A stretch of 64,000 nucleotides of DNA from Sphyrna mokarran (taxonomy: Eukaryota): the NCBI GenBank assembly GCA_024679065.1, contig JAGIQG010000017.1, forward strand, positions 22,878,001 to 22,942,000. The letters are read 5' to 3'. The notes under the pieces are model-generated. The model was not told the origin of the DNA and made no database searches. It saw nothing but the letters and a program-made list of their open reading frames with translations. This document shows positions 11,801 to 63,207 of the stretch, piece after piece. Numbering within the stretch: position 1 is the first letter of the stretch; each line of letters begins with the position of its first letter. The position numbers were made by a program, and so were the translations under genes.

Positions 11801-11823
11801 TCAGTCCTTCCTTCACATTTACA

Positions 11824-11880: not shown

Positions 11881-11939
11881 TCACAACTGTGAAAGGAATG
11901 GAACACTATTGATGAAACTTTGAGATTTAAGGAACAATG

Positions 11940-36799: not shown

Positions 36800-38895
36800 T
36801 CTGCGGGATCCTGACACACATCACAGATTTAAGTGCAAAGATAGGAAGATTTGGATTTTTTTTATATTAATCATTTCTTAGGCCTCAACTGAAGTACTAT
36901 GTCTAAATCTAGACACTACGCTTCAGGAAGGGCACCAAGGTATTAGAGAGGCTACAGAAGATATTTGTGAGAATGGTTCTGGAGATTAAGGGTGTCAGTT
37001 GTGTGGATAGATTGGAGAAGCTGCAATAGAAGAAATGTTAAGAGGAGATTTGATATTATGCAAAATTGCCAATGGTCTGGAAACAGCAGATGGGGAGAAA
37101 CTGTTTCCTTTAGTGGAAAACTAAGAATCAGGTGACATTGATTTAAGATGAAAACCAAAGATGACTTGAGGAAAAACACAGAGTGATTAGGATCTCAAAT
37201 GCATGGCTTGGGAGTGTGAGTGGAGGCAGAATCAATCGCGACTTTTAAAAGGGAATTGGATAATTATTTGAAAATAAAAAGTTGTAGAGCTAATGGGAAT
37301 AAGATACAAGAGGTGAATGGCTGAGTTGTTTCTGCAGAGACCTGACATTGACACAACAGGCCAAACAGCCTTCTTCCAAGTGTTATCATTCTATGATTCT
37401 AGGTGATACTGAAGTTTTACATTACACTGTCAGGTTGCTTTATTTAATCGCTGCAACTAAAGATACATACATACATTTGCTGAAGGGAAAAGCAATTTGA
37501 AAAGTTAAAGGAACCCACACTACAACATTCAAAATGCTAAAAACTATAGAATAGATTAACCCAATGTAATAGTAAATCAGTTGAATCTAGGAACTTAATT
37601 CTCTTAACAAAAAAGTGTATTTCTGAGAGGTCACACAACACCAGGTGTTCAACAGGTTTACTGAAATCACAGGATGGATTAGAGCACTGATTCTTCATCA
37701 GGTGAAGTGGAGAGAGGAGGGCAGGCACAGGATATATAGACAGCTGTCACTCATAGTCTAACACTTACAGGTAATCAAGTGTATCAAAAGACAGTGTAGT
37801 GCAACATAGGCCGGCTGAATAACAAGTTTTTGCAGGTAATCATGAGTGGGGCTTGGTGGAAGCAACATTAAACCATCTTCGATTGCTCTCATAACCCATC
37901 TAGAACATAGAACACTACAGCACAAACAGGCCCTTCGACCTACAAGTTGTGCTGCCAATCATATCAGTACCTACCAGACCATAGAATTATCTGTAACTCC
38001 CAATCCCATTTACTCCCATGTACTCATCCAGAAGTCTCTTAAAAGACCCCAGTGAGTTCGCCTCTACCACCACTGACGGCAGCCGATTCCATTCACTCAC
38101 CACCCTCTAAGTGAAAAACTTACCTCTAGCATCACCTCTATACTTGCCCCCCAGCACCTTAAACCTGTGTCCTCTCATAGCGACCATTTCAGTCCTGGGA
38201 AATAGCCTCCCAGAATCCACCCTATCTATTCCTCTCACATCTTATAAACCTCTAACAGGTCGCCTCTCAACCTCCGTCTCTCGAGGGAGAAGAGACCTAG
38301 TTCTCTCAACCTAAGGCATGCCTCCCAATCCAGGCAACATCCTTGTAAATCTCCTCTGCACCCTCTCAATAGCTTCCACATCCTTCCTATAGTGAGGTGA
38401 TCAGAACTGCACACAGTACTCCAAATGGGGTCTGACAAGGGTCTTATAAAGTTGCAGCATTTACCTCCCGACTCCTAAACTCAATCCCTCTATTAATAAA
38501 GGCCAGTACACCATGTGCCTTCTTGACCACATCCTCCACTTGCGGGGCCAATTTAAGAGTCCTATGGACTCAGAACCCAAGATCCTTCTGCTCCTCAACA
38601 CTGCCAAGATTCCTACTCTTGATATTATACTCCTTCATCCCATTGGTCCTGCCAAAATGGACCACCACACATTTATCCCCATTGAATTCCGTCTGCCATT
38701 TCTCCACCCAGTCTTGCATCCTATCTATGTCTCACTGCAACTTCAGACATCCCTCCAGACTATTCACAACACCACCACCCTTCGTATCATCGGCGAACTT
38801 ACTAACCCATCCTCCACTTCATCATTCAGGTCATTTATAAAAATGACAAACAGCAAGGGTCCTAGAACAGATCCCTGGGGCACTTCACTGGTGAC
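36800..38895. mobile_element. CR1 fragments: plus ~36800-37402 and minus ~37900-38895
   Basis: LGLFSLERRRLRGDL and VPQGSVLGP on minus; ttctatgattcta tail at ~37390; tagaacatagaaca tail at 37900. Confidence 0.85.
37628..37870 (-). mobile_element. Degenerate PLE terminal/3'UTR fragment with decayed hammerhead
   Basis: tcacacaacaccagg...aacaggttta...gagcactgattcttcatcaggtga resembles the other copies; GAAA lost. Confidence 0.7.
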
Positions 38896-40221
38896 TGGTT
38901 CACTAATATCCTCATCTGGTCTAGCCTATATGCAACTCCAGATCCATAGCAATGTGGTTCACTTTTAACTGTGCTTTGAAATGATTTCAGAAGCCACTAA
39001 GTTCAATTAGCGATAGTTAACAAACATTGGCATTATCAGTGATGTTCATAAAAGAAAAGAAAAATTGCAATTAACCAACTGGTTAGTTTCAACTTGTTGG
39101 CCTGCAAAATTAGACTGTCAGCAAAAGTTGAGTTTTTGAGTAACGTTGTTTTAATTACAATAAACACTTAAACTGTTAACCATAATAATAAACTAACAAT
39201 TAACTTTCATCATTTGTACTTAGTGTTTTCAATATTTGAAAAATCTTATCATAACACTAATAATACTCAGTTTATAATCAGACTACAGGTCATTAATTTA
39301 AATTAAGTAAATTTAAAACAATAGTACATATTTAAAACAATCTGCTGGACATGGTTAACAGACACAAACGTGGTATGTTTATTCTGCACCCGGATACTAC
39401 ATAGGAAAATTTGGGCAAGAAAACGTGTACATTTAGCATTTTCTCAAGGGTGTCAAGAAACTACCGCAAGATCCCCACAAGTAGCCGAAGTCGAATGATC
39501 ACTTAATGATCGAGTTGAAAGAACAATGTTGACGAGAGTTCAGAGAGAATTATCTGCAACAACGTCACACTTTAGTGTTCACAGTGACGTTTCACCTTTT
39601 AAGGCTAATTCTACATAAATTGTCATTCACGTCATAGTTTCAGTAGTTATTTAGGCCTTTTCCCTTCCTCATTGGGTGACTGCGCAGAATACTACGGAAA
39701 CAGACACTCAAACACTCTTCGTGGACGCACTTCTAGGAAATAGTTTCTGTGTTAACGGACATAGAAAATACAGAGTGTGCTAAATGTTCCGGCTGAGAGG
39801 AGAAAAAAAGGAACTGCACATCCTGCTACCTTGTTTTCACGGTTTGATGTACATATGACACACACTGGCTGGACAAAAGAAAAATTTTTAAAAGCAAGAA
39901 ACATTGCCGTTACTTTGTAAGATTTGTGTTGAATTGGTCCAATATAAGACAACGTCACAATAAATTGACAAAAGAATTAACGCAGCGGGGAAACTTTCCA
40001 GCGGCAGAAAGCCAGTATTTAGTATTTTATTTAAATGGGATGCATTCTGTTTTAAAATCAACAACTACCAATCTGTTAATCCCGCTTTAAATGGGAAAAT
40101 TGTACTGCGGACTTTCACAGTAACTCCATTGTACTGTTAATGTAAGTCTACTTGTGACACTAATGAATACGTTTTAAAACTTGACAGGCCAACTATAGCA
40201 AGAAAACAGTCTTTTAAACAT

Positions 40222-40318
40222 CAACAGAAAATGCTGGGAAATCTCTGCAGTTCTGATAGCATCTATGGGGACAGAATAGTACCAAAGTTTCGTGTCAAGA
40301 TGACCCTTCGCCAGAGTT
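40222..40318 (-). repeat. Family-2 short repeat with hammerhead-like motif, ~70 bp into NHLRC2 intron 1
   Basis: Minus strand CTGGCGA-A-GGGTC ATCTT GACAC-GAAA-CTTT followed by ...catagatgct...cagcattttctgtt; homologous to 7685-7790 and 5351-5455. Confidence 0.7.
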
Positions 40319-40389
40319 TCCGTAAAGTTTTTTTTGCCTTAAACTAGGTTTCCTATTGCTCTTTATGGGGTTGATTGGGGGGAACTCAC

Positions 40390-40537
40390 CTTGATCAAAC
40401 TCGGGCACTGTTAAGTCGGTTTCCCTACCATCTATCTTTGTGAGGTGCTTGAGGATAAGTTGTTCTTTCTCGGCTGGGTCGGCAGCTTCTAGTAAAGCGG
40501 CGTCCAACTGAGCCTGAAACACAGACACAACCGCCAT
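40390..40537 (-). CDS. NHLRC2: NHL repeat-containing protein 2, coding exon 1 (148 nt, phase-1 end)
   Basis: MAVVSVFQAQLDAALLEAADPAEKEQLILKHLTKIDGRETDLTVPEFDQ-G resembles the vertebrate NHLRC2 N-terminus (LEYALLDA...EKD.LV..YL.KVDGWEQDLSVPEF). ATG in strong context GGCATGG; donor CAAG|GTGAGT at 40389. Confidence 0.93.
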
Positions 40538-40827
40538 GCCGACTACGGGGAAGGAAGACCACCAATGACAGCAGCGGACCCTCATCACCACTTTCGTCAC
40601 GCCGCTCTGAAATAGTTAATCTAAATTAAAATGAAATCAAACCCTCCACGCATCTTGGATATGGATGCGGAACTGATGGTTGATTTACTTAATTTTTATT
40701 ATGGATGGGTTGATATAAGGGGCCGTTGTCGAATTTGTGGATCGGAATGGGGATTTGGCCGTTGTAAAGGATCGCGAGTGCGGCTGTTTTAACGGCTCGG
40801 CGTTCTAGCCGGCGTTGCGCCTGCGTC
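40538..40827. promoter_or_regulatory. Compact bidirectional promoter and 5'UTR region of NHLRC2/DCLRE1A within a CpG-rich island
   Basis: 290 bp between divergent ATGs; CpG-rich flanks (~40460-41200) around an AT-rich core (~40610-40715); CRE-like TGCGTCA just before the DCLRE1A ATG. TSS positions cannot be read from sequence. Confidence 0.8.
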
Positions 40828-41251
40828 ATGGCCAGCGGTGAGGAGGAAGCTATCTGGGGCTACCGCTCGGTTCGGAGAGTGAAGCGGCCGGGTAGCTCCG
40901 GCCTTGGCTCGCCGAGAAGCCGGGGTAAAGGAGCCAGACCACCCTCCCGGCGCCAGCCCCAGGGAAAAGCTGCCGCTCACTCTGCGAGAGATGGTGGGCC
41001 AGCCTCCGCTCCGGAGCCGAGCCCTCCTGTCTCGGGTAGCCCCAGCAGCAGCACGACACCGCCAGAGCCAGCCGCCGGCAGCCCCTCGAACCGGTCTGAA
41101 TGTCCCGAGGGGAAACAAATTACCCGAAAAGCCAGGCCTGTCCGTGAGGGACACTGCCCAATCTGTCAAATGCCCTTCTCCCTGCTACTGATAGAAACAC
41201 CCAGATGGCATGTGACAGAGTGTTTGGATACTCCAGGTTGCACTGATAATG
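40828..41251 (+). CDS. DCLRE1A: DNA cross-link repair 1A (SNM1A) coding exon 1 (424 nt, phase-1 end) with UBZ zinc finger
   Basis: N-terminal EEAIWGYRS.RR.KR resembles SNM1A EEDIWEYKSKRKPKR. RPVREGHCPICQMPFSLLLIETPRWHVTECLD matches the SNM1A UBZ (CPNCQMPF...TPRWHVFECLD). Donor AATG|GTAAGT at 41252. DCLRE1A is known to be head-to-head with NHLRC2 in human. Confidence 0.95.
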
Positions 41252-41679
41252 GTAAGTTGCCATTTAGGTGCGGATCTTTCAGTCTTACTTTAATATGAAA
41301 TGTGAATAATGACACTTTAACACACAAAACAAAAAGTGCTGGAAACGCTTAACAGGCCTGGCAGCATTTGTGGACGAAGTAAGAAATCTCACAACACCAG
41401 GTTAGAGTTCAGTCAGTTTATTTGATAGTAATCTCACAAGCTTTCGGAAATTGTGTTCCTTCGGGTGCGTAGAAGGTGTTCTGATCAGAGAAGGGCATAT
41501 AAAGTCACAGTTTGCAGAATACTGATTAGGATGCAAATCTTTACAGCTAACCTGCTATTGCAGCCAATATGAGTGGAGATAGCCTTAGGTATAGGTTAAA
41601 GAGATGTGTTTCCAGACAGGACAGTATGTGAGATTTTACAAGTTCAAGCAAGTCATGGGGGTTATAGATACCATGACAT

Positions 41680-42721
41680 TTGGCCTTTGTAGCGAGGGGA
41701 ATAGAATATAAAAGCAGGGAGGTCTTGATGCAACTGTAAAAGGGCACTGGTGAGGCTACAACTGGGGTACTATGTGCAGTTTTGGTCCCCTTATTTGCGA
41801 AAGGATATATTAGCCTTGGAGGGAGTACAGAGAAGGTTCACCAGGCTGACACCAGAAATAAGAGGGTTAACTTACGAGGAGAGATTAAATAGACTGGGCC
41901 TGTACTCGTTGGAGTTTAGAAGGCTGAGGGGGATCTTATAGAAGCTTACAAGATAGTGAAAGGGCTAATAGAACATAGAACATTACAGCACAGAACAGGC
42001 CCTTCGGCCTTCGATGTTGCGCCGACCAATATAAAAAGCAATGCCCCTCCAAACTAAACCATTCCCTTCTCTTCCATATACTTATCAACTAACCTCTTAA
42101 ACGCCACCAAACTTGGCGCATCTACAACTGCTGCAGGCAGGGCATTCCACTCCCGAACCACCCTTTGGGTAAAGAACCTACCTCTGATATCCGTCCTATA
42201 ACTATCACCCCTTAATTTAAAGCTGTGTCCCCTCGTGCTAGCTTTCTCCATCCTAGGAAAAGGCTATCACTGTCCACCCTATCTAAACCTCTAATCATCT
42301 TATATGTTTCGATTAGGTCCCCTCTTAGCCGCCTCCTTTCTAACGAATACAACCTCAAATCCCTCAGCCTCTCCTCATAATAGAGGTAGAAAGATTCTTT
42401 CTGCTTAGAAAGGAAAACAGAACTAGAGGGCACAGCCTCAAAATGAGGGGGGTAGCAGTTTAGAATGGAGTTGAGGAGGAACTTCACTCAAAGGGTGGTG
42501 AATCTCTGGAATTCTCTGCCCATTGAAGTGGTGAAGGCAACCTTGTTGAATATATTTAAGTCACGGGTATATAGATTTCTGATAGACAAGGGAATTAAGA
42601 GTTATGGGGAGAAAGCGGGAAAGTGTAACTGATCCACTTCAGATCAGCCATAATCTTACTGATGGTGGGTCAGGCTTGAAGGGCTAGATGGCCTACTCCA
42701 GCTCCTATATCTTACGTTCTT
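41680..42721 (+). mobile_element. CR1 3' fragment (host of the young CR1, itself inserted in a PLE)
   Basis: ORF 41750-41941 Y.VQFWSPYLRKDI.ALEGVQRRFTRL...YEERL..LGLYSLEFRRLRG; resumes after 42384. Confidence 0.9.
41969..42380 (-). mobile_element. Young CR1 3' fragment inserted in an older plus-strand CR1
   Basis: Nearly identical to 19552-20000; taataga duplicated at 41966-41972 and 42378-42384. Confidence 0.95.
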
Positions 42722-42949
42722 ATGACATGAACCCAAGATGCTGGTTGAGGTCTTTGTCAATGCCACTACCTTTTGGGGTTCTACTCCTTTATCAGGTGAG
42801 TGGGACTCTTACCTGACAAGGGGGTAGAGTCCTGAAAGCTAGTGGTGTTTGCTACCAAATAAATCTGTTGGACTTTAACTTGGTGTTGTGAGACTTCTTG
42901 CTGTGTTTATCCCAGTCCAATGCCAGCATCTCTACATATCTGTGGAGAA

Positions 42950-43208
42950 CCAGCGAATCTTTACGGTGCAGGAGGAGGCCATTTGGTCCATCAAGTTTGC
43001 ACTGACCACGATCCCACCCAGTCTCTATCCCCTTAACCCCATCTATTTACCCTATTAGTCCCCTAATACTAACAGGCAATCTAGCAAGGCCAACACACGC
43101 AGCTTTAGAGTGTGGAAGGAAACTGGAATACCTGGAGGAAACCCACAGAGAATATGCAAACTCCACACAGACAATTACCTGAGGTTGGAATTGAACTCGG
43201 GTCCTTAG
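42950..43208 (-). mobile_element. HE1/V-SINE-like SINE
   Basis: Reverse complement of the V-domain (gcaaactccacacag, ggaaactgga...ggaggaaaccc) and B-box (ggaattgaactcggg). Confidence 0.85.
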
Positions 43209-43559
43209 TGAGAAAGAAACAATTTTTCTCTCTCCATGGATGCTAGCAGATCTGCTAAGTTTTTCTAATTTTTTTGTTTCCATACAATCGCTTGGTTTCA
43301 AATTTCCAGCATCCACAGTATTTGGCTTTATTTTTAATGTACAGTCAATGTCTATTGACTCATTAAAATGGAGGTATTTATTGAGTGGTTTTGGAACTTA
43401 TTTCATTGTACAGTAATGTTCCCCAGATGCAGGGAGTTCCCAGGGAACCTCAGCAACTTCTATTTATATAAGGGATCTTTTCTTGGGTATAGTAATTTTC
43501 TCCCGATCCAAGCAGCTCCCTAAATGCCTTGGTAACTTCTGTTTAAACTGCACCTTTAA

Positions 43560-44236
43560 TATCGGAAAATGGCCCAAACACGTGAGGACCAATATCACCA
43601 AAATCTGACATTGAATCACATGTGGAATAATAGGATATGACTGAAAACAGGCAGTTTTAAGAGGCATTTTAAAAGTGGAGAGTTTTAGAAAGAGAACAAA
43701 TATATACATGAGAGTTTCAGCTGCAGATTGGCAGAGGCTGGGGTGCAGTTGGGTCTTGTCGCTGAGGTGAAGTAGGTAGTCTTGATGATGGAGAGGATGG
43801 TTCAGGGTCAAATATGATGTTGAGGTTGCAAACAGTCTACCATGGCATCAGAAAATGGGTGGGAGAGGGGTGAAACAATGGCTGGGACCAGAGTTCAAAG
43901 CAAGTGCTGAAGACATGCTTTAGTTCTCCCAATATTTTATTGGGGGAAACTTCTGCTCATCCCATGTGTGATGCTGGAAAAATTACAGATTAAAGATGGT
44001 CAAGTGATGAATGTTGACTGCATATACTTGGAATCTGACATATTTTTGGATGATGTAAATCAGAAAAAAATGAGTGGCCAAGACCATGTTCACTAGGGAC
44101 TCCAAAAGTAATAGTGTGAGAATAGGCAAGTAAACCATTTTAGGTGATTCTCTAGCTATAGATAAAATTGTACCAGCTGAGTGCAGGTCCATTGAGGTGA
44201 GGCATTCGAGAAACAGTTGATCACAACCTCTATCAG
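43560..44236 (-). mobile_element. Decayed L2-like LINE RT fragment
   Basis: ORF 43464-43811 HLSDKTQLHPS and QSAAETLMY resemble L2 ADDTQLY and 'AETLIH' segments; internally deleted. Confidence 0.55.
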
Positions 44237-44761
44237 AGTAAGAAGTCTCACAACACCAAGTTAAAGTCCAACAGGTTATTTGGAATCATGAGCTTTCGGA
44301 GTACTGCTCATTCAGCAGGTGAGTGGAGAGAGAGGTTTCACAAACACGGCATATATAGACAAAGACAAATTGCAAGATAATGGTTTGAATGTGAGTCTTT
44401 ACAGATACAGAGTACGAGTGGAGAGAGGAATAATCACAGGTTAAAGAGGTGTGAATTGTCTCAAGCTAGGATAGTTGGTAGGATTTTGCAAACCTAGATC
44501 AAATGGTGAGGTTACACGTAGTGTGACATGAGGCCAAGATCCTGGTTGAGGCCACCTCATGCATGCGGAACTTGTCTATCAATTTCTGCTTGGTGAATCT
44601 GCATTGTCTTATGTCTTGAAGGCTGCCTCAGAAAATGCTTATCCAAAGATCAGAGTCTGAATGCTCTTGACAGCTGAAGTGGCCCCTGACTGGAAGGGAA
44701 CATTCCTGTTGTGAGGCTTCTTATTGTGCCCACCCCAGTCCAATGTTGGCATCTCCACATC
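44237..44761. mobile_element. PLE derivative with short inverted tailed end, inserted in an L2-like LINE
   Basis: Terminal repeat agtaagaagtctcacaacacc... with mutated hammerhead on minus (CTGCTGA...CCGAAAGCTC), GIY-YIG C-terminal remnant, inverted end tgtgaggcttcttatt...atctccacat; degenerate tcacaac..tatca duplication. Confidence 0.85.
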
Positions 44762-44868
44762 ACAACAGTATCAAAGGCTACTGATAAATTAAGAATGATT
44801 TAACATATGAACATTAAAACAGTAGTCAAAGGAATGTCAGATGATTTGTGACCAACTTGGAGATCTTT

Positions 44869-46765
44869 TAGAACATAGAACATTACAGTGCAGAACAGGC
44901 CCTTTGGCCTTCGATGTTGCGCCGACCAATTAACAAAAAGCAATGACCCTCTAACCTAAACCATTCCCTTTTCATCCATAAACTTATCTACTAATCTCTT
45001 AAACGCCACCAAACTTGGCACATTTACAACTGCAGCAGGCAGGGCATTCCATACCCTTACCACCCTCTGGGTAAAGAACCTACCTCTGACATCCGTCCTA
45101 TAACTACCACCCCTTAATTTAAAGCTATGTCCCCTCGTGCTAGCTTTCTCCATCCTAGGAAAAAGGCTATCACTGTCCACCCTATCGAAACCTCTAATCA
45201 TCTTATATGTTTCGATTAGGTCTCCTCTTAGCCGCCTCCTTTCTAATGAAAACAACCTCAAATCCCGCAGCCTCTCTTCATAAGACCTGCCCTCCATACC
45301 AGGCAACATCCTGGTAAACCTCCTCTGTACCCTCTCCAATGCCTCCACATCTTTCTATAATGCGGGGACCAGAACTGCACACAATACTCCAAGTGCGGCC
45401 GCACTAGAGTTTTGTACAGTTGCAACATGACGTTGCGGCTCCAAAATTCAATCCCCCTACCAATAAAAGCTAAGACTCCGTATTCCTTCTTAACAACCTT
45501 ATCGACTTGACTGCCTACTTTCAGGGATCTATGCACAAATACACCAAGATCCCTCTGTTCATCAACACTATTAAGAATCCTACCATTAGCCCTATACTCT
45601 ACACATTTGTTATTCCTGCCAAAGTGAACTACCTCACACTTTTCCACATTAAACTCCATTTGCCACCTCTCGGCCCAGCTCTGCAACTTGTCCAAGTCTC
45701 TCTGCAAACTATACCACCCCCCTTCACTATCTACCACTCCTCCGACTTTGGTGTCATCCGCAAATTTACTAATCCATCCTTCAATACCCTCATCTAGATC
45801 ATTTATAAAATTTACAAACAGCAGGGGCCCCAATACAGACCCCTGAGGTACACCACTTGTAACCAAACTCCATGATGAATAATTTCCATCAACCACCACC
45901 CTCTGTCTTGTATCAGCTAGCCAATTCCTAATCCAATTAGCTAAATCACCCTCAATCCCATACATCTGCATTTTCTGCCGAAGCCTTCCATGGGCCACCT
46001 TATCGAACGCCTTACTAAAGTCCATATATACCACATCAACTGCCTTACCCCCATCCACCTCTTTGGTCAATTTTTCAAAAAACTCAATAAGGTTAGTAAG
46101 GCACGACCTACCCTTCACAAAACCATGCTGACTATCCCCAATCAATTTGTTTCTCTCTACATAACTATAAATCCTATCCCTAATAATTCTTTCCAATACT
46201 TTGCCCACAACAGAAGTAAGACTCACCGGTCTATAATTCCCAGGAAAGTCTCTATTTCCCTTCTTGAACAATGGGACCACATTCGCTATCCTCCAGTCTT
46301 CCGGCACTATACCTGTAACCAACGACGACCTGAAGATCAGAGCCAGAGGCTCTGCAATCTCCTCTCTTGCCTCCCAGAGAATCCTAGGGTAAATCCCGTC
46401 CGGCCTAGGGGACTTATCCAACTTCAAACCCTCGAGAATATCTAGCACATCCTCCCTATCTACTTCGATACCTTCCAGTTTGCTACCCTGTACCTCAGTG
46501 TTCTCCATAACTACATTTACATCACCCTGCGTGAATACCGAAGAGAAATATTTATTCAGTGCCTCTCCAATCTCTTCAGGCTCCACTCACAACTTCCCAC
46601 TGCTGTCTCTGACTGGCCCTAATCTTGCCCTAACCAATCTTTTATTCTTAACATATCTAAAGAAAGCTTTAGGATTCTCCTTGATCCTATCAGCCAAAGT
46701 CTTCTCGTGTCCTCTTTTAGCTCTTCTCAACTCACTCTTTAGCTCCCTCCTGGCTAATCTATTTT
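44869..46765 (-). mobile_element. Young 5'-truncated CR1 LINE, RT nearly intact
   Basis: 442-aa ORF with KSP.PDGI, NYRPVSLTS, QHGF, YMDFSKAFDKV, GVPQGSVLGP, KFADD; C-terminus in 44956-45348 after a frameshift; tagaacatagaaca 3' tail. Confidence 0.96.
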
Positions 46766-46769
46766 GGAG

Positions 46770-50821: not shown

Positions 50822-53800
50822 TACAAATAGGAAAGCAGATGATTACTTGAATGGATGTAAATTCAGAGAGGTGGGTACTCAGTGAGACCTTGGTATCTTT
50901 GTGCATTAGTCACTGAAAATAAGTGTGCAGGTACAGCAGACATAAAGAAGGCAAATGGTATATTGGCCTTCGTAGTGAGAGGATTTCAGTATAGGAATGT
51001 TTTACTGAAGTTGTATATAGGTGTTGGTGAGGCCATATTTGGAATGTTATGTGCAATTTGGTACCCTTACCTGGTGAAGGGAGTGCAACAAAGGATTACC
51101 AGGCTAATTCCTGGGATGGCAGGGCTGTTATAGGAGGAGAAACTACATCAGTCAGGATTATATTTATTAGAAGGAGTTAGAAGAGTGAGATGGAATCTCA
51201 TAGAACTTTATAAAAGTCTAACAGGATTAAACAGGATTATTCAGAAAAAATGTTCCTGATGGTGGGGGAATCCAGAACCAGGGGGATAGCTTGAGGATAA
51301 GGGATAAATCTTTTATGATTGAAGTGAAGAAAAATTTCTTCACCTAGAAAGTAGTGTATCTGTGGAATTCACGACCATGGAAAATAGTTGTGGCTAAAAC
51401 GTTGTGCGATTTTAAGAAACAATTAACAAAGAACAGTATAGCACAGAAGCAGGCTCTTCTGCTGTTCAAGCCTGCGCCGATCATGTTTACTATCTAAGTC
51501 AACCGCTTAAAACCCTCGATTCCCTGTTTGTTCATATGCCTATCAAGATGAGTCTTAAATTTGGCTAATGTAATTGCCTCAACCACGTCACTTAGTGTAT
51601 TTCAGGCCTCCATCACTCTGTACAGGAGAACTGGAAAAAATCCTCCCTCCTCAGTTTATCTTGAGCTTGTGCCCCCTTGTAATTGTCATTTCTGCCTAGG
51701 GAAAATGCTTCCAACTGCTCACCCTATCTATACCTTTCATCATTTTATAACATTTTATCAGCTTCTGTCTTTCTAGGGAGAACAATCCAGTTTATTCAAT
51801 CTCTCCTCACAGCTAATACCATCCCCATACTAGGCAATATCCTGGTACACCTTTCCTGCACTCTCTGCAAAGCCTCTACATCCTTCTGGTGCAATAAGTA
51901 GTCTCACAGCACCAAGTTAAAGTCCACTAGGTTTATTTGGTAGCGTGAGCTTTCGGAGCACTGCTTCTTCATCAGGTAAGTTTGTTTCACAAACAGGACG
52001 TATATAGACACAAACTCAATTATAAAATAATGGTTGGAATGCAAGTTTTAATAGGTAACTAAGTCGTTACAGGTGCAGACAATAAGTGAAAAGAGGATTA
52101 AGCGCAGGTTAAAGAGGTGCAAATTGTTTCAAGCCAGGACAGTTATTGAGATTTTGCAAGCCCAGGCAAGTCATGTGGATTACAGATAGTGTAGCATGAA
52201 CCCAAGATCCCAGTTGAGGCCGTCCTCCTGTGCGGAACTTGGCTATCTACTCGGCGATCCTATGCTGTCATGTGTCTTGAAGACCGCCTTGGAGAATGCT
52301 TATCCGAAGATCAGAGGCTGAATGCTCTTAACTGCTGAAGTGCTCCCAGACAGGAAGGGAACACTCCTGACTGGTGATTGTTGAGCAGTGTCTATTAATC
52401 TGTTGTTGTAGCATCAGCATGGTCTTGTCAGCATGGTACCATGCCTCAGGACATCTTCTCCTGCAGCGTATCAGATAGACGATGTTGGCTGAGTCGCATG
52501 AGTATGTACCCAGTAGATGGTGTTCTCACATGAGATGATGGCATCTGTGTCAATGATCAGGCACGTCTTGCAGAGATTGCTTGGTAGGGTTGTGTGGTGT
52601 TGTGATCGCTGTTCTCCAGAAGGCTGGATAGTTTGCGGCGAACAGTGGTCTGAGGTTGCGTAGTTGTTTGAAGGCAATTAATGAGGGTACGGGAATGGCC
52701 TTGGTGAGATGTTTGTCTTTGTTGATGACATGTTGTAGCTTCTCCGCTGGGGAAGTACTGGATGATGAAGGGTTCTCTGTTTGCCGTCAACCTCTAATCT
52801 TCAGATAAGCATTCTCCGAGGCCACTATGACAATGAATGCACGTAGCTGATGAAGAAGCAGCACTCCAAAAGTTCATGTTACCAAATTAACCTTTGGACT
52901 TTAACCTGGTGTTGTGAGTCTACTTACTTTGCCTACCCCAGTCCAATGCTAGCAACTCCACATTATCCTTCCAGTAGTGTGGGGACCAGAATTGGACACA
53001 GTATTCCAGATTTGGCTGAACCAACACTTTATACAACTGTAACTCAATTTGCCAACTTTTATAGTCTATCCTGTCTGATGAAGGGAGCACACCATATGCT
53101 TTCTTCACCACCACTCCACCTGTGCTGCCACTTTTAAGGATCTGTGGACCTGTACTCCCAGATCTATCTGTGTGACTATGCTTCAGATTGTTCTGCCATT
53201 CATTGTATAGCTCCTACTTGAACTGGATCTACTAAAATGCATCACATCGCATTTGTCTGGATTAAATTCCATTTGCCATTCCATTTGCCCAATTTTCCAG
53301 TCTATCAATGTCCTGCTGTATTTCCTATCTTCATCACTAGTCGCAACTCTGCCAATCTTAGTATCTTCTGCAAACTTGTTAATCAAACCAGCTACGTTTT
53401 CTTCCAAGTCATCCCTGTGGAACATCACTAGTTAAAGATCTCCATTCAGAAAATCACCATTGCTATCTTTTGGCTTCTTTCACCAAGCCAGTTCTGAATC
53501 CATAGTTAGTTCACCGCTGACCCCATGAGATTTAGTCTTTTGCACTAGCCTGCCATGAGGGACCTTGTCAAATGCCTTGTCCATATAGACAACATCCACA
53601 GTCTTTTCCTTGTCAAACATTTTTGTCACCTTCTCAAAAATACTCAATTAGTGATACGTGACTTCCCTTGTACAAAACCCTGCTGTCTATTGCTAACAAG
53701 ACCATTCGTTCAAAATGTGTATAGATCCTATTCCTAAGAATCTTCAGATATAACTCTTGGGGCTAAAGGGATCAGATGAAAAGGGGGAAGATGGGATCAG

Positions 53801-53895: not shown

Positions 53896-54088
53896 TTTTT
53901 ATGCACCACATTCCTTCAGTCGTAGTTGGATGAAAACCCTGAAACTTCATATGTACCAATCTTGCAGCAGCAGCATCCCTATCACATGGACTGCAATCTT
54001 TCAAGAAAGCAGTCCACCACCAACTTATCAAGAAATAAGTGATGAAATGTAAATGTTGCCCTTGGCAATCATATCACTTTTTTTATGG

Positions 54089-54215
54089 TCACTCACCTGA
54101 TGAAGGAGCAATGCTCTGAAAGCTCGTTTTATCAAATAAACCTGTTGGATTTTAACCTGGTGTTATGAGATTTCTTACTGTGACCTTCTCAGTCCAATGC
54201 TGGCACCTTCATGTC
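54089..54215 (+). mobile_element. Solo PLE terminal repeat with hammerhead core (CTGATGA 54097-54103, GAAA 54118-54121) and tail
   Basis: ACTCAC-CTGATGA-A-GGAGC AAT GCTCT-GAAA-GCTC-GTTT, followed by the aaataaacctgttgga...cttact...cagtccaatgc terminus shared with the other copies. Confidence 0.85.
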
Positions 54216-54289
54216 ATTTCTAATGATCTGTCAGTGAAATATGGAGAATGGTAGGTACAATTAATGTTGCTAATTTATTTTTCTGAAGA

Positions 54290-54605: not shown

Positions 54606-54919
54606 ACATCTGGTAGACTGAGGACGGTCATCTAATCAGTATTCCCTAGTTTCAAACCAAATAATGTGTTAACGCTCAGCTCTCATTGATTTTTTGGTGC
54701 TGATTTTTCTAAAATCTGAGTGTTGAGTTGTTGTCTTGCTTAAGAAGAAAACACAAACCCAATTTTTTTTTTAATGCTCCAAAGGAATGCTTAGTTGTCT
54801 CGTTTCTTCCCTGCGTAGCTACAAGGCATTTTATTCTCCAGTCTGGAAGTATGTTATAAACTTATCAAATTCTCCAACGTTTAAATAAAAATCTAATAAT
54901 GTGTACAAAGGATTCTAAT

Positions 54920-55357
54920 GATATGGAGATGCTGACGTTGGACTGGAGTAAACACAGTAAGAATTCTCACAACACCAGGTTAAAGTCCAACAGGTTTATT
55001 TGATAGCACAAGCCACCAGCACTGCTCCTTCACCAAGAAGTTTTGTTTACAAATAGAGCATATAAAGACACAAAATCAATTTACAAAGTAATGGTTGGAA
55101 TGCAAGTCTTTATAGGTAATGAAGTCTTAAAGGTACAGAAAATGTGAGTGCAAAGAGCGTTAAGCACAGGTTAAAGAAATGTGTATTATCTCCAGCCAGG
55201 ACAGTGAGTGAGATTTTGCCTCCTTGGAAAGTACTTATCCGAAGATCAGAGGCCGAATGCCTATGACCGCTGAAGGGTGCTCCCTCAGGAAGAGAACACT
55301 CTTGCCTCGTGATTGTGAGCAGTGTTTATTCATTTGTTGTCATAGCATCTACTACAG
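54920..55357 (-). mobile_element. 5'-truncated PLE derivative with perfect 14-bp target-site duplication
   Basis: caaaggattctaat at 54906-54919 and 55358-55371; tailed terminal repeat with hammerhead partly deleted; GIY-YIG remnant. Confidence 0.88.
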
Positions 55358-57979
55358 CAAAGGATTCTAATCAGTTCTTGATTTCTGCCATGCTGATGTT
55401 TTAGATGCTGAACGGAGGCTAAATTTTCTAGGGATAAATGTAGACAGTAGGTGCTCTAAAGGATTTGCAAGGGGGAACGTAGCTAGAATACACTTAAGAA
55501 TGTATCCATAAAAATAAAATTAGCTTTTGACTGCTATCAATACTACATGTTCGTTTTGTTGGAAGTATTGATGTGGGAAATGTCTCTCGTATTTGATACT
55601 TTTATCACGAATTCCCAGCTAGCCAAATGACTTGTTTTCACTCCAGTTTGCTGTGGAGATAATAAGTAAACATGAACTGGTAAATCATGTTAATAATATT
55701 TTGAAATGCGTCATTGGCATGATGTAATATGAAGATTGTTATTTTTCTCAGCCTTCAATATAAATAATTGAGATAAAATTTTGTAATTTGGTTTGATATT
55801 TGCTAACTGACAGGAAAGAAAATTATAGGGGTGGTGTGTTATTAGAATGCAGGTTCAAATTTAACATAATAAATGTTAAAAACCATTGTTAGAAGAGCTA
55901 TCTAAAACACATTTAAGTAATTTCTTGGCAATCTGAACTGGTTTAGTCTGTAACACTAAACTGCCCACAGTTTTAGCAGTAATATGCTGATCAACTAGTT
56001 GCTGGACACATCTCTGAATTACAGTGAAGTGATTGATGCAAGGGGAGGAAGCATCTTTTTGTACCCTTTCTCAACTTTAAAATCATGAAACCTATCACAA
56101 ATCTAAAATTTCCTACAGTTAGCAGTTATTTGGTACAATGCTACATTGTATTGGTGTTCTTAGCATTTACAGCATAGAAACAGACTAGTTCAGGAGTAGG
56201 ATAGCAGGGGAGGAAAGTTGAAGGGCATGACTGGTTTGATGCTACTCAGTAATAAAAGTTGAGATGTGAGATCGCCCTATGCGTTTTTTTTTAATTCTAA
56301 TATATTCTACCTAACCATATTACGAGATTCCCATTTATAGAACTAAGTCAACTTGACTTTAACTTTTGACTCTTGTGCTCTATTTTGTACATTTAAATTT
56401 GCAATCCCCCATAAGAGGAACAATACTTATCTTCAGAAAATATGTTGTAATGAAGATAGAGTATATGTGGAATTAATATCTGACAGATGTTACTTTATAT
56501 GGTAGAATTCTTGATCCACAAAAATTAGCTGATACTCCCATTCCCACTTAATGCATTCTTTTCAAAGGTTCAGATCACAGCTGATGTTTTTCAAAGCACA
56601 GTGCCAGGAGTTTGGGAGAGCCTTGGTATTAATAATGTTCTGCATCATTCCATACATGTTTAACTGATAAATGGGAGAAGATATTAAAAAAAGAGAAAAT
56701 CTCCCATTGTCAAGTTTGAGATTTTGGGAGAGTATATAAATGAATGCATCTACAATATATCAGTATCTACTGTAATGGTGAAAATAATCCCCATAAGCTT
56801 GTGTAGTAAGTCATTTATTCCGGTAATTCACTTATAAGTATTGAGTACCAAATAAAGCTGCACAAAACACTAATACTGGTATTTGTATTAAATGTATTGG
56901 GCAGGTTTCATTGACCTTCTGTGAATGAAATAAAGTCAGTAATGATTCTAAAATGATTTTAACTATCATTTTAATTTGTAAGGTAGATTTGAATATTAGT
57001 AATAAAGAGTAACTCATTTATTGCAAATGTTTAATTTTTTTTAAATTGTTAATATTTCTCATTACAAAGTTATTGCCATACGCACTTAAGTGTGAATTAC
57101 GGAGCACATTACATGAAAAGGATACATACATGAGGTCTAGGCAGTTAAAAACAGATGAAGCATTTGAAGAATGCAGAGAAAGTAGAAAACAGCTCAAACA
57201 GGGAATTAGGACAAAAAGGGTCACAATGTCCTTGGAGAATTCCAAGGCATTTTATACGTATATTAGGAACTAGAGGGCAGTTAGAGTTGGTCCACTTAAG
57301 GATAAAAGAGGGAAATTATGTGTAGAACCAAAGGAAGTGGGTGAGATCCTTAATGAGTACTTTGCATCAGTAGTCACAAAGGAGAGGGACATGTTGGTTG
57401 ATGGTGTCTCGGAGGGATGTGTAAACCTTTTAGAACAAGTCATCATCGCAAGGAAGGAAGTGGTAGGTGAATTAGAAAGCATTAAGGTAGACAAATCCCC
57501 AGGGCCAGGTAGCACCTATCTGAGATTACTGAAGGAGATGAGATGAAATTACTGCACCTCAAACAGAAATCTTTGTTTCTTTGATGGCCGTTGGTGAGGT
57601 CTCAGAGAATGGATAGTCAACATTGTCCCATTATTTAAAGAGGTAGCAGGAATAACCCAGGTAATTATAGGCCAGTAAATTTGACATCATTGATTGTGAA
57701 ATTGTTGGAGAAGATTCTTATAAATAGGATCTATCCATATTTGGAACTGAATGGTCTTGTTAGCGACAGACAGCATGGTTTTGTATGAGGGAAGTTACAT
57801 CTCACCAATTTGATTGAGTTGTTTAAGCAAATGACAAAAATGATTGATGAGGGAAAGGCTGTGTATGTTGTCAAAGCATTTGACAAGATCCTTCATGGTA
57901 GGCCGGTGCAAAAGATTAAATCTCATGGGATCAGGGATGAACTAGCTAGACGGACTCAGAACGGACTTGGCCATAGAAG

Positions 57980-58104
57980 TGGAGATGCCAGCAATGGATT
58001 GGGGTAAGCACAATAAGAAGTCTTACAACACCAGGTTAAAATCCAACAGGATTATTTCAAATAAACATGTTGGACTTTAACCTGATGTTGTAAGACTTCT
58101 TACT
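57980..58104. mobile_element. Miniature PLE fold-back (terminal repeat only, ~89-nt hairpin) inserted in CR1
   Basis: 58014-58102 is a near-perfect palindrome; flanked by ttggccatagaag (57967-57979) and ttggtcagagaag (58108-58120). Confidence 0.85.
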
Positions 58105-58216
58105 ATGTTGGTCAGAGAAGACAGAGGGTAGTGGTGGAAGGTGATTTTCTGAATGGAGGACTATAGTTGGTGATGATCTGCAAGGATCAGTGCTGGGATC
58201 TCTGCTGTTTTTTTGT

Positions 58217-58553
58217 GGGCAGCACAGTAACACAATGGTTAGCACTGTTGCTTCGCAGCTGACCTGGGTTCAATCCCTGGCTTGGGTCACTGTCTGTGTG
58301 GAGTTTGTACATTCTCCTCGTGTCTGCATGATTTCCTCCGAGTGCTCCAGTTTCCTCCCACAGTCCAAAGATGTGCACATTAGGTTGATTGGCCATGCTA
58401 AAAATTGCCCTTAGCATCCTGAGATGCATGGGATAAAGATATTAGTAGGTAAATATGTAGGATGTAGGGATAGGGCTGGGTGGGATTGTGGTCAGTGCAG
58501 ACTTGATGGGCCGAATGGTGTCTCTCTGTACTGTAGGGTTTCTATGATTTCTA
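58217..58553 (+). mobile_element. HE1/V-SINE-like SINE
   Basis: gggcagcac head, A/B boxes, V-domain, tctatgatttcta tail; inserted in CR1 RT. Confidence 0.9.
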
Positions 58554-59518
58554 CATTTGTGATATATATAAATTACTTGGAAGAAAATGTAGCTAGTCTG
58601 ATCAGCAAATTTGCAGATGATACTAAGATTCGTGGAGTTGTGGATAGTGATGAAGATTGTCTGGGAATACAGCAGGATATAGATAGGAAAATTGGATAGA
58701 GAAATGGCAGATGGAATTTAATCTAGACAGATGCAATGTAATGCATTTTGCTGGATCCAATTCAGGTGGGAGCTACAAAATAGATGGCAGAACTATCAAG
58801 AGCATAGAGACACTGATCTAGAAATACAGGTCCACAAATACTTAAACATGGCACTACAGGTGAAAATGGTGCCTTTATCAGTAAATGAGGTATAGAAGTT
58901 GGCAAATTGTGTTGCAGTTGTATAAAATGTGGATTTGGCATATTTGGAATACTGTGTCCAATTCTGGTCACCACACGACCAGAAGGAGGTGGAGGCTTTG
59001 GAGAGAGTACAGAAAACGTTAATCAGGATTTGCCTGTCATGGAGGGTACTACCTGTAAGAAGAGATTGAATAAACAGGGATTGTTCTCCTTGGAAAAATG
59101 GAGGTTGTTCGTAAAATGATGAAAGGTATAGATAGGGTGAACAGTTGGAAGTTTTTTCCTAGGGCAGAAATGGCAATTACAAGAGGCACAAGTTCAAGAT
59201 AAGGGGAAAAGGTTCAGTGTGGGGGAAATTTTTTTTATACTGAGGGTGGTGCGGTCGTGGAATGCATTGCCAAAATGAGGTATTCGATGCGGTTATGTTA
59301 ATCATGTTTAAGACTTATTTTGATAGGTATATGAAGAAAAGGGGAATAGAGGGATCTAAGTGATTAATTTAGATAGGTAAAGTGATTGGTACAGGTTTGG
59401 AGGACCAAAGGGCCTGTTCCTATGCTGTACTGTTCTTTGTCCTGTGATTTTAGTAAGAAATTTGCTTTTTCTTGTTTTATTATTACACAAAAGACAATGC
59501 GTGTCATTACATAAAAGG

Positions 59519-59787
59519 ATAGGTACTCAGATTGCCAGAGATCTGGGTTCAATTCTGGCCCCAGGTGACTGTGCAAACACCATACAGACATTCTCTCCAT
59601 GGGTTTCTTCCCACAGACCAAAGATATGTGGCTTAGATAAATTGCCCCTTAATATCCCAAGATGTGTAGGTTAGAGGGATTATCAGGGTAAATAAGTGAA
59701 GTTACGAGAATAGTGGCTGGGTGGGATTGTTGGCAGTGCACGTTTAATGGGCTGCATAGTCTCCTTCTACACTATGGGGAATCTATA
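59519..59787 (+). mobile_element. HE1/V-SINE-like SINE (degenerate)
   Basis: gggttcaattct B-box; ttcttcccacagaccaaagat...gtaggttagagggatta. Confidence 0.8.
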
Positions 59788-61471
59788 ACCTGTTCAGGGA
59801 GTGAACTGACACTACTGAATTCTAGAAGATGTTTATGATAGACCCCAATTTGTAACAAATGTACAGCAATATGAAATTTGTCTTAATTCTTTTTAAAGAA
59901 GGGTAACTTTTTAATGTGGTGTTATATCAATTAAATGTTTTCCTGGGGATAACTTTATTCTTAAGTTTAAAATTCTAGGAATGGGAACTCATTTCCTATG
60001 CATGTTTTAACTTTATATACCTTTATTCTTTTAGAAACTGTAATTCCAAACACTTCTTTTCAAATTAGTAAGCGTCGCTATCTTTGAGCCAGAAGCTCTG
60101 GGTTCGAGTCTCACTCTTGGATTTGATGGCCATGGAAACTGAGTTCATAATCTGGCTAAACCTGTTGATTCTAAACATATAAATCCTTCCAATACGCATA
60201 TGGCAGGTGATAGGAGCGATAGAGTCTCCGGTCAGTCCAGTACCATAGTCAGGCATAACTATGGACCAACCCATGGAAATCCATGATCACCAATACCCTC
60301 TTTGGACATGGTACCTAGAGAAAAAAAGTCCAAAATGATAACACAATTAACTCCCAACAGATATTTGGAGTCATTTCATTGGTTAATTTATTTTTCATTG
60401 TTTTTGTGCACCCTTATTTGTTACAATTTGTATATCACACTCTAAAAGGGCATCCAAGAGTTTCAGTATGTTGACAGCATATATGTAGCCATTTTATACT
60501 GGAAATGTGCCATCCATCATATCATTTGAGGATTTTTAATAGGTGTCCAAGATGGGCACCTAAAACTGCACTGGTGTCCCTAACTTGCCTATGCATTGGG
60601 CCTAACTCCCACTTTCAGCCCCTTTGTTAAACTGGTTTGTGCATGACCACAGTATGGACTACACATGCTATGATGTCAGTTTCTTTATTTTTCCAAGTAA
60701 GCCAGTGATCCTTAAAAGTACTCAAAAATCTACCACCCAAGGCAATATTATTAATATTTTTAAAAACTTACTTGAAGTGAGACTCAAGATTGCTTGAGAT
60801 AGAGGATCTCCAATGGAAAATATACACCGTTTGGAGGAAGAATGACGAATTAAAGGATTAAAAATGTTCTACTTTTTAAAAAGAAACATTCTTGAATAAT
60901 AGTTAACTGTCTAAAACCTACAGCTGTTTAGTATTTTAATACTATTCCACTATTAAAAAGATCTAATTTTGTGCCGAATGTACGCCATTTGGTGTTAATT
61001 TGAAGAATACTTCTTTAGATTTTCCTATAGGATTATAGTCCTGTTCCTTATAAAACATTTATCGCTCTTGGTGGAAACACATTGGGTACCAGAATTGTGA
61101 AGGAATTCAGAAAGTCCTCTGCTCTAGACTGAGAATTGCATCCAGTTTTAGTTTTATACATCTATCATAGGAACAAACATAATGAGGATTACTTGATATG
61201 GAAAACTATGGCATGGCTTCAGTTCAATCCAAAAGGACCAAGTGAACTTCATATTTTTTATCCTTACAGGGTGAGAGCGTTCAAGATTTTAGCCTGCAGC
61301 ACAGTTAATGTCTGGTGCTGTAGTTCTTGTAATATATAATAATTTACTGGCTGTTTTATGATCTTCAGTTGTTTTTCTTTCTCTCCATTATTTGCTCCTG
61401 CAATTTTCCTGGCCTAATATAGAACTGAGTTATGTAGTTAAAGAAAAGACATTTTCATTCTATCCTATTGA

Positions 61472-61880
61472 TCAGCCTTGGCTCATTGATAACACTGATT
61501 CAGAGGCAAAAGGGATTGTGCAAGTTTAAATCCCATTTCAGTAACTTGAACGCAAGATCTTTTAATTGACACTTCTGAATATTGCTGATAAGATTGTTCC
61601 ACTGCTGAGATGCTGTATTTCATATGTGATATCAAACCAAAGTACCATCAGACCCCTCATGCGGACATAAAGTCTCATGGCTGATTTGAAGACTTCTTGG
61701 TGTCCTAGTCAAAATTTACCCTTCACTCATCACCATTAAAGCATCTTATCACTGTCTTGATGTTTTGGGATATAGCAACTAGTTTGTAGTTTCCTACATG
61801 ACAAGAGACACTATGCTTCAGAAGTAATTCATAAGACATCTCCAAATTGTGAAAGGTGTTATATAAAAGTAAGTTTTTCT
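61472..61880 (+). mobile_element. Deu-domain (SacSINE1-like) SINE, degenerate
   Basis: Colinear with 14203-14640; tail gtgttatataaaagtaagtttttc. Confidence 0.62.
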
Positions 61881-61987
61881 TTTCACTAGCAACTCCTACT
61901 TATTAAAGAGTTATTAAATGACCTGCATTTGTGAATGGGGAAAAAGCCGATGGAATCATCTGATACAGTGATATGTATTATTTCACT

Positions 61988-63207
61988 GAGTAAAGTTTTA
62001 CAACATCAATTTTAAATCCAACCAATTTATTTGATAGTAAATCCGCGAGCTTTCGACACTATGCGCCTTCGTCAGGCAAATGCAGTGCTCTGATCTGCAG
62101 AGGCACTCATATGCACAGACAGTTACAGATTGCTGATTAGAATGCGAATCCTTACATCTAACCTGCTATTCAAGTGTTAAAGTGGCTAACAATGTGTGTG
62201 AAGGGAATCCTGAGCATTTGTTAGAGAATTGTGTATTTTCTCCAGACAGCACAGTAAGTGAGGTTTTTTGCTAATCCAGGCAAGTTACGGGGGTTACAGA
62301 TAGTGTGTCATGAAGCCAAGATCCTTGTTAAGACCGTCCTCATGTGTGCGGAACTTGGCTATCAGTCTCTGCTCAGCAACTCTGCGCTGTGTGTCACGAA
62401 GGCCCCCTTGAAGAACATTTACCCACAGGTCGGAGGCCGAATGCCCATGACTGCTGAAGTGTTCGCCCACAGGAAGGGAACTGTTTTGCCTGGTGATTGT
62501 TGAGCGACGCTCATTCATCCGCTGTCGTAGTGTCTGCATGGTCTCCCCAATGTACCATGCTTCGGGACATCCTTTCTTGCAATGTATTAGGTACACAACG
62601 TTGGCCGAGTTGCAAGAGTATGTACCGTGTATCTGGTGAATGGTATCCTCACGTTTGATGATGTCGTCCATGTCTATGGTCTGGCATGTCTTGCAGAGGT
62701 TGCTGTGGCAGGGTTGTGTGGTATTGTGGTCAATGTTCTCCTGAAGGTTGGGTAGTTTGCTGCGAACAATGATCTGTTTAAGGTTGTGCGGTTGTCTGAA
62801 AGCAAGAAGTGGGGGGGGTGGGGATGGCCCTAGCGAGATGTTCATCGTCATCAATGACGTGTTGAAGACTCCGGAGAAGATGTCATAGCTTCTCCGCTCC
62901 GGGGAAGTACTGGACAACAAAGGGTACTCTGTCCACCTTGTCCCATGTTTGTCTTCTGAGGAGGTCAGTGTGGTTTATCGCTTGTGGCACGTTGGAACTG
63001 TCGATTGAGAGTCGAGCGCCATATCCTATTCTCACGAGGGCATCCTTCAGCATCTGGAGGTGTCTGTCACGATCCTCCTCATCTGAGCAAATTCTGTGTA
63101 TACGGAGGGCTTGTCCATAGGGAATGGCTTCTTTAACGTGTCTAGGGTGGAAGCTGGAGAAGTGGAGCATTGTGAGGTTGTCTGTCGGTTTGCGGTACAC
63201 TGAGGTG
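61988..63207 (-). mobile_element. Penelope-like element, 3' arm: RT thumb/linker, GIY-YIG endonuclease and terminal repeat with hammerhead
   Basis: ORFs 62883-63200 (YRKPTDNLTMLHFSSFHP..K.AIPYGQALRIHRICS) and 62294-62920 (C..C, SCNSANVVYLIHC...YIGETMQTLRQRMNE.R...VGEHF...E..LI..F.T...GLN), frameshifted; typical PLE GIY-YIG. Confidence 0.93.
62041..62081 (-). ncRNA. Minimal type I hammerhead ribozyme motif (intact) in PLE terminal repeat
   Basis: Minus strand AUUUGC-CUGACGA-A-GGCGC AUA GUGUC-GAAA-GCUC-GCGGAU. Complete core; stem II 5 bp (2 G.U); stem I 6 bp (2 G.U); palindromic AGCU stem III; CUC cleavage triplet. Confidence 0.8.

Follow-up and report, generated by a model that had tools for sequence, protein, structure and literature searches.

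The window analysed here is a 64,000-nt stretch of the Sphyrna mokarran genome (assembly GCA_024679065.1, contig JAGIQG010000017.1, positions 22,878,001 to 22,942,000). It contains a family of related repeats, which are very probably the 5'-truncated, often head-to-head inverted 3' ends (pseudo-long terminal repeats, pLTRs) of one long-lived lineage of Neptune-type Penelope-like elements (PLEs). The minimal type I hammerhead ribozyme that they carry is likely kept functional in active master elements, decaying in the inserted copies.

Unit layout and hammerhead motifs

The repeat family in the window was defined by a motif scan for CTGANGA together with self-BLAST and alignment. The alignment showed that each repeat end consists of CUGANGA-A-stem II-GAAA-GC-UH, followed by AATAAA and then a conserved tail. 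A profile built from the ribozyme-free tail only detected 13 element ends in the window, 12 of them in the region of 37.6–62.1 kb, and gave no match in reversed DNA used as the control. This region holds 10 hammerhead remnants, nine found by the motif profile and a more damaged one at 55.0 kb found by alignment. The full core is kept in only three of the 10 (51975−, 54097+, and 62075−), and the 62075− motif is the only one that combines it with two fully paired stems. This motif, whose copy (62041..62081) has relatives of 96–98% identity, folds alone as a monomer hammerhead (−8.4 kcal/mol), whereas two decayed motifs do not. A scan against Rfam with E values up to 1 gave seven matches, none of them to a hammerhead family, so that no curated hammerhead covariance model was matched. 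The miRNA-like matches at 58.0 kb were rejected, as they are below the gathering score and arise from the hairpin of a tail-only fold-back.

The unit inserted at 62 kb, whose two arms are 96.9% identical, encodes a reverse transcriptase (RT; PF00078, RVT_1, E = 3e-10) followed, within one open reading frame (ORF), by a GIY-YIG domain, the arrangement of an endonuclease-containing (EN+) PLE. The GIY-YIG match is weak (E = 2e-4, 21.9 bits against a cutoff of 22.6), and relatives carry PF01541. The partial tandem of the pLTR, the inverted 5'-truncated partner, the tail, and the target-site duplication are also those of EN+ PLE insertions. The translation contains a CX4CxxC linker, and a CX2-5CxxC linker before GIY-YIG is a mark of the Neptune and Nematis groups (PMC8557442). 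The lineage is accordingly termed Neptune-type through this linker motif, and not through a tree with reference elements. The closest RT relatives are proteins of Scyliorhinus, Heptranchias, and Mustelus (78–90% identity).

The start of the unit was sought at 10 loci upstream of RT matches. At locus L285, the pLTR directly precedes the ORF, with the ATG immediately after the long end of the tail. Copies L284 and L286 start at the ATG and L281 starts about 20 nt inside the ORF, so that the ATG is the starting point of two of the four copies extending as far as the ORF start. With a length of about 3.0 kb, the unit consists, in order, of a TATA-like box, a spacer of about 30 nt, the ribozyme (stem I-core-stem II-GAAA-GC-UH-stem I), AATAAA, the short end, the tail, the long end, and the ATG of the ORF (RT, linker, GIY-YIG). 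The tail is predicted to form a hairpin pairing GUUGGA with UCCAA around the short end (e.g., window 54133-54219 and L121:1181-1258), which is a candidate RT-binding structure.

Compensatory stem changes and decay of inserted copies

Relatives of four window copies were used to build four family consensuses, and consensus stems were derived from 190 insertions clustered on non-stem sequence. The consensus stem II is GGAGC/GCTCC in subfamily A, GGGGC/GCCC(C/T) in D, GGAAC/GTTTCC in C, and GAGG/CCTC in E, and B has several types. The cluster consensuses carry the CUGANGA, GAAA, and NUH elements, the extra base after A9, and the palindromic helix III of the PLE minimal hammerhead. In one young B subfamily, the closing pair, usually G-C, seems to be fixed as G10.1-U11.1 (four independent insertions: L133, L201, L249, and L269).

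A sequence-only reading of the window had interpreted the differences in stem II between copies as covariation. The stem II strings that it cited are present in the alignment, as are the stem I pairings CAC/GTG (41.4 kb) and ATTTGC/GCGGAT (62041) and the GAAA-GC-U-H segments. The interpretation holds for the copies at 41.4, 42.8, and 62.07 kb, which display subfamily-level compensatory changes, but not for those at 54.1 and 51.97 kb, where the differences are due to decay after insertion: GCTCT at 54105 results from CpG C-to-T decay of the consensus GCTCC(G), and GAAGC at 51967 from a G-to-A change that breaks the pair in the family consensus GGAGC/GCTCC. The 41.4-kb copy, cited for its stem I, has a 3-base deletion within CUGANGA, and the 42.81-kb copy has lost G8. 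The same reading had noted that a retained GAAA is followed by GCTC, GCTT, or GCTA and never by GCTG. This NUH rule was confirmed, position 17 being C, T, or A in all six window motifs that retain GAAA; it is weak evidence by itself, because position 17 changed only a few times. In the wider set, position 17 is C, T, or A depending on the subfamily, and G, whose frequent occurrence in consensuses had been named as a sign against a working ribozyme, appears in three of 94 arms, in one of the 55 arms with an intact GAAAGCT, and in no consensus.

Pairing was examined in 67 unselected insertions with a parsable motif. In these, 82% of the stem cells are paired, compared to 36–43% for slid partners. 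Double changes from the modal pair are still paired in 18 of 18 cases at 10.2-11.2, 29 of 29 at 10.3-11.3, and 15 of 20 at 10.4-11.4 in stem II, and in 16 of 16 at pair 2 and seven of 13 at pair 3 in stem I. The subset with an intact core (27 of the 67) is 90.8% paired, compared to 75.6 ± 1.8% in shuffles, and contains 48 double-change cells, compared to 20.5 ± 4.3 in shuffles (0/500 in both cases). The covariation score is 0.61, whereas slid partners reach at most 0.24, and RNAalifold finds stem II unaided.

The covariation might in principle reflect nothing but shared ancestry and chance. When 27 long arms were placed on a tree using sequence outside the ribozyme, they formed a ladder leading from old A/D/C through E to young B, and the double changes trace to only about six or seven independent compensatory events on this 27-row tree, as counted by eye. 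The two pair-count measures least sensitive to relatedness were not above the shuffles (5 vs. 4.3, 207/500; 13 vs. 13.9, 463/500), and RNAalifold gave no stem I. These results weigh against a conserved ribozyme fold. On the other hand, transversion double changes (G-C to C-G) occur, the scores of slid partners remain low, and pairs 10.2 and 10.3 are unpaired in only zero and one of 26 cases, respectively, despite 11–13 double changes each. We thus consider it very unlikely that ancestry and chance account for the covariation. Sequence comparison supports the view that successive subfamilies altered stems I and II in a compensatory fashion with the core kept.

The core was also expected to be more conserved than its flanks. 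This expectation was borne out against the upstream sequence: among the four family consensuses, 13 of 14 core columns are invariant, compared to 76 of 159 upstream columns (P = 0.001). The number becomes 14 of 14 if CpG decay of G8 in the query-biased set is allowed for (the D-type arms read CG in six, CA in six, TG in four, and TA in one). In contrast, the excess of the core over the tail, another conserved segment (64 of 88 columns invariant), is not significant (P = 0.18), and this result tempers the argument from core conservation.

Decay was followed in 43 unselected insertions that were found by their tails and are long enough to span the motif. The core is intact in 16 of them; G8 is lost in eight and G12 in 14, both positions lie in CpGs, and the genomic copies lose them at CpG rates. 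Mismatch rates compared base by base showed no difference between core and tail (P = 0.08–1.0), and without stratification P was 0.38, or 0.04 when the anchor was left out. Among young B arms, 16 of 23 have an intact core, vs. eight of 32 among old A arms, and the core is kept in 19 main arms among 20 of the youngest copies. The proposal that several PLE subfamilies were selected to keep a working ribozyme therefore stands with respect to the compensatory stems and the core kept between subfamilies, but does not extend to the genomic copies, which decay like the flanking tail. These patterns support selection acting on the master elements and not on the inserted copies.

Copy pattern, template ends, and surrounding sequence

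An unselected sample of 159 stretches of 10 kb, taken at round coordinates of large contigs (1.59 Mb, 0.06% of the genome; locus L121 excluded), contained 142 element ends, that is, 89 per Mb, compared to 203 per Mb in the window. Extrapolation gives an estimate of about 2.5x10^5 ends genome-wide. This high density, together with the many copies of only about 130 nt that share a common 5' end, could be explained by short pLTR-derived, retrozyme-like elements that amplify themselves via ribozyme-made circular RNAs, and pLTR-related retrozymes have been reported in vertebrates, including one chondrichthyan, in a 2026 preprint that covers one chondrichthyan genome (bioRxiv 10.64898/2026.07.22.740005). 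The sequence-only reading had likewise proposed the amplification of short non-autonomous retrozyme-like derivatives. The arrangement of the copies argues against this explanation. In the unselected DNA, 44 neighbouring pairs of ends are head-to-head, 13 tail-to-tail, and six on the same strand, with the closest same-strand neighbours 881 bp apart. No tandem arrays of the motif were found in the 1.59 Mb, and the motif was present in none of 46 tandem repeats with a period of at least 40 in the random, search, and window DNA (about 2.0 Mb), so that arrays of two or more hammerhead monomers are absent there. Nine same-strand neighbours in the search loci (39–910 bp apart) were rejected as a fixed monomer, as mapping resolved them into short partial tandems and into copies that are separate or nested. 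Across the unit, the unselected copies give a coverage of 92 at the tail that drops to one at the ORF start, 5' ends range continuously into the PLE ORF, and short copies occur in all four reference families and share subfamilies with long ones, which is not the pattern of a fixed non-coding monomer with its own lineage. In addition, the motif is minimal and not the canonical type I motif of retrozymes (PMC7229834).

The copies are flanked by target-site duplications. Among the unselected head-to-head pairs of less than 1 kb, 30 of 31 classifiable pairs have one long and one short end (six of 37 were unclassified), as do 41 of 46 classifiable pairs in the search loci (12 of 58 unclassified). 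In L281–L289, an inverted partner arm was observed in six of 10 long young copies, with breakpoints scattered through the ORF. The excess of head-to-head pairs, the absence of arrays, the falling coverage, and the one-tail rule led us to conclude that the insertion pattern is that of truncated, inverted, one-tailed PLEs and not that of a retrozyme array. Within the sampled 0.06% of the genome, the retrozyme explanation is largely refuted, and we regard it as highly improbable.

The ends of the copies provided insight into the templates. Eighteen of 126 arms, from about 15 insertions, end 5–8 nt upstream of C3, where 2.4 would be expected, and 15 of the 18 end at +6/+7, where stem I begins. The cut site showed no significant enrichment of 5' ends among the 126 arms (seven vs. 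3.8 expected, P = 0.09), and 3' ends there were rare (1/94 and 0/172). That 5' ends accumulate at the start of stem I and not at the cut site suggests that these arms were copied by run-off from transcripts that had not been cleaved. Three of the four consensuses have a TATATA-like box about 30 nt upstream of the stem I start. The A+1 of stem I stands in an initiator-like context, judged by the usual promoter consensus sequences. From these observations, we infer that transcription starts at the first base of stem I, in which case the ribozyme would form the extreme 5' end of the RNA. In nine of the 11 arms ending exactly at A+1 (six of eight random, two of two search, and one young), the base before it is a G, compared to C in 53 of 53 long arms, and L206, L213, and L291 have extra bases, the last of them a G, before A+1. 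About four of the nine G residues can derive from the partner arm, and two have ambiguous flanks; a cap origin of the G is therefore only suggestive.

The clustered 5' ends may instead result from stalling of the RT or snap-back of the cDNA at stem I. Many junctions are palindromic with microhomology, and the partner arm could have templated the G in the cases mentioned above. Separately, the TATA box is degenerate in the youngest subfamilies, which tells against the proposed transcription start. However, the cluster is sharp, it falls about 30 nt past the TATATA-like boxes on an initiator-like A, and L206, L213, and L291 have the extra bases mentioned above. We consider stalling or snap-back somewhat unlikely. 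There is one young fold-back, L293 (G000:C783:39762275-39762724), flanked by an 8-bp target-site duplication, in which the inverted arm ends exactly at C17 and thus has the extent of the 5' cleavage product of the ribozyme only. One random copy (L254) also ends exactly at C17, and this observation is anecdotal.

The PLE features of the window are collected in Table 1. Several of the units are inserted into, or interrupted by, elements of the long interspersed nuclear element (LINE) type. A LINE-type RT element (PF00078) occupies 45258-46586 (−), and tblastn revealed LINE-type fragments of several ages (e.g., 19549-19999, 41966-42380, and 44869-45319), with the pieces at 19.5 and 42.0 kb being 98% identical. 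An exon with thioredoxin-like and NHL domains was observed at 16277-16810 (−). At 40828-41250 (+) lies a GC-rich, divergent first exon without a Pfam match, which contains a CPxC zinc-finger-like stretch and ends at a GT donor near 41252. The two resemble NHLRC2 and DCLRE1A in head-to-head arrangement, in which case the PLE copies would lie in introns. A 52-bp tandem unit unrelated to the PLE recurs in L136, L143, L214, L272, L011, L094, and L101 and is apparently another abundant shark repeat.

Table 1. PLE-derived features of the window (window coordinates)
Feature	Position	Strand	Remarks
Hammerhead of young subfamily B1, the only fully intact minimal type I motif in the window	62041..62081	−	By alignment; 6-bp stem I ATTTGC/GCGGAT, CUGACGA-A, 5-bp stem II, GAAA-GC-UC; predicted cut between 62047 and 62046; first base, 62081, is the putative transcription start
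Short-ended arm of young head-to-head insertion (62 kb)	61985..63207	−	3' part of ORF (linker, GIY-YIG) and pLTR
Long-tailed arm of 62-kb insertion	63208..64000	+	RT; runs about 1.26 kb beyond the window, where it ends in a second hammerhead and long tail
Left copy of 14-bp target-site duplication of 62-kb insertion	61977..61990	+	Right copy past the window, in L121
Tail-only fold-back	57972..58118		Two inverted ends without hammerhead; by tail profile
Subfamily A copy with internal deletion	54914..55349	−	Hammerhead destroyed; long tail; 16-bp target-site duplication with one mismatch
Mini copy, subfamily A	54091..54219	+	Starts near the putative transcription start; long tail; core intact, C11.1 decayed, stem I partly broken
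Inverted partner arm of 51.9-kb copy	52841..52967	+	Hammerhead remnant without G12; long tail; imperfect target-site duplication around the whole unit
Subfamily A arm extending into ORF (51.9 kb)	51889..52780	−	Short end; within a LINE fragment
Hammerhead of 51.9-kb arm	51939-51981	−	Core intact; mismatches in stems I and II
Head-to-head unit (44 kb)	44232..44768		Minus arm 44232-44708, short end; tail-only plus arm 44707-44768, long tail
Hammerhead remnant of 44-kb minus arm	44282-44324	−	A6 lost
Fold-back unit, subfamily D	42754..42941		Plus arm 42807-42941, long tail, G8 lost through CpG decay; short inverted remnant 42754-42804
Subfamily C copy reaching ORF end (41.4 kb)	41365..41679	−	Interrupted by LINE
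Hammerhead of 41.4-kb copy	41432-41470	−	3-base core deletion; stem II of GGAAC/TTTCC type
Old copy	37626..37790	−	CUGAUGA kept, GAAA lost
Tail-only remnant	11821-11882	−	Outside the 37.6–62.1 kb region

Known systems and the role of the ribozyme

The presence of hammerheads with covariation in PLE pLTRs is not new, since it was described in 2014 (Cervera and De la Pena 2014, PMC4209133). Covarying hammerhead families, single truncated copies, and opposite-strand pairs were reported there for fishes, coelacanth, frog, and reptiles, and our motif has every sequence feature of these minimal hammerheads of metazoan PLE pLTRs. The differences are that stem II is 3–5 bp here and 7–8 bp there, and that the shark stem changes can be arranged along a single ladder of subfamilies and the inferred transcription start coincides with the beginning of stem I. 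With the units of Neptune EN+ PLEs (Craig et al. 2021, PMC8557442; Arkhipova et al. 2013, PMC3846280), the shark element shares the C-terminal GIY-YIG domain, the CX2-5CxxC linker, 5' truncation, the partial tandem, the adjacent inverted 5'-truncated copy, the 30–40 bp tail at one end, and target-site duplications; in comparison, the one-tail rule is nearly strict here (30/31), and mini fold-backs are very abundant. A TATA box with a TCACT initiator was proposed for a rotifer pLTR in this literature, and a TATA-less internal promoter for Drosophila Penelope (PMC2377424). Poseidon_Ac of the green anole (Frangieh et al. 2024, PMC11167929) is alike in having two internal RT start sites that define the tail, cutting and extension of both strands, uncleaved RNA as the main template, and a hammerhead in the pLTR. 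In that element, the ORF starts within the hammerhead and the RT starts 111–118 nt into the ORF, whereas here the ATG directly follows the long end of the tail. Non-LTR retrozymes (Cervera and De la Pena 2020, PMC7229834; Li et al. 2026, bioRxiv 10.64898/2026.07.22.740005) have a type I hammerhead, short repeats, and pLTR ancestry in common with the shark copies, but are defined by head-to-tail arrays of 150–450 bp monomers, of which none were found here. Our literature search, which covered few subscription papers, found nothing on shark PLE hammerheads, though supplements of known papers may list shark motifs, and nothing on a PLE transcription start at stem I or on an untemplated cap G.

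The following cycle may be proposed. RNA polymerase II would initiate at the first base of stem I, and the element protein would use each of the two internal start sites to prime one of the two target strands, producing inverted pairs in which one end is long and the other short. Run-off mini copies of 130 nt would come from uncleaved RNA primed at the 5' tail, and the longer, truncated copies from priming at a tail downstream of the ORF; such a downstream tail could arise via read-through past AATAAA or via a circle. The most likely role of the ribozyme, which we put forward tentatively, is slow cleavage, either as a dimer via the palindromic AGCU helix III of two pLTRs or with the aid of a protein, to free unit-length RNA able to circularise. 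In the circle, the start sites in the tail would come to lie downstream of the ORF, also in the event that AATAAA ends most linear transcripts before the tail. A single turn around this circle would fit the two copies that start exactly with the ATG, as would also a block by bound protein. In our co-folding, the helix III dimer was not the minimum-energy form, a result that is uninformative on this point. Lunse et al. reportedly described dimeric PLE hammerheads in 2017. A circle-release model for the PLE hammerhead has been proposed (PMC4209133). Mutants of the anole Poseidon ribozyme left insertion in vitro unchanged (PMC11167929), and a required role in transposition is weakened by this result.

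The structure might instead be kept for a non-catalytic reason, such as a fold of the 5'-untranslated region, protein binding, or overlap with the promoter, with negligible cleavage in vivo. No cleavage had occurred in the templates that end at stem I, the cut site shows no enrichment of ends, as described above, and minimal hammerheads cleaved poorly in vitro (PMC4209133). Yet all the catalytic positions, an H17 that is not G, the AGCU palindrome, and the extra A were fixed while the stems changed, and the L293 inverted arm and the L254 copy, however anecdotal, end exactly at C17. We therefore judge a purely non-catalytic structure to be unlikely. A fuller and more speculative picture of a catalytic hammerhead is possible, which we offer with considerable doubt: the hammerhead would be the first 35 nt of a capped transcript under a TATA box, the mini fold-backs would be strong-stop-like run-off cDNAs from the 5' tail, and each inverted insertion would use both RT start sites, one per strand. 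Cleavage would then decap the RNA, the freed unit would have to circularise to put the tail behind the ORF, and the subfamily ladder would be a natural mutational series of one ribozyme.

With regard to the part played by the ribozyme in the PLE cycle, the copies, estimated at about 2.5x10^5, act as dated fossils that record where templates began and ended. These fossils indicate uncleaved RNA starting from stem I and a near-strict rule of one tail per inverted pair.

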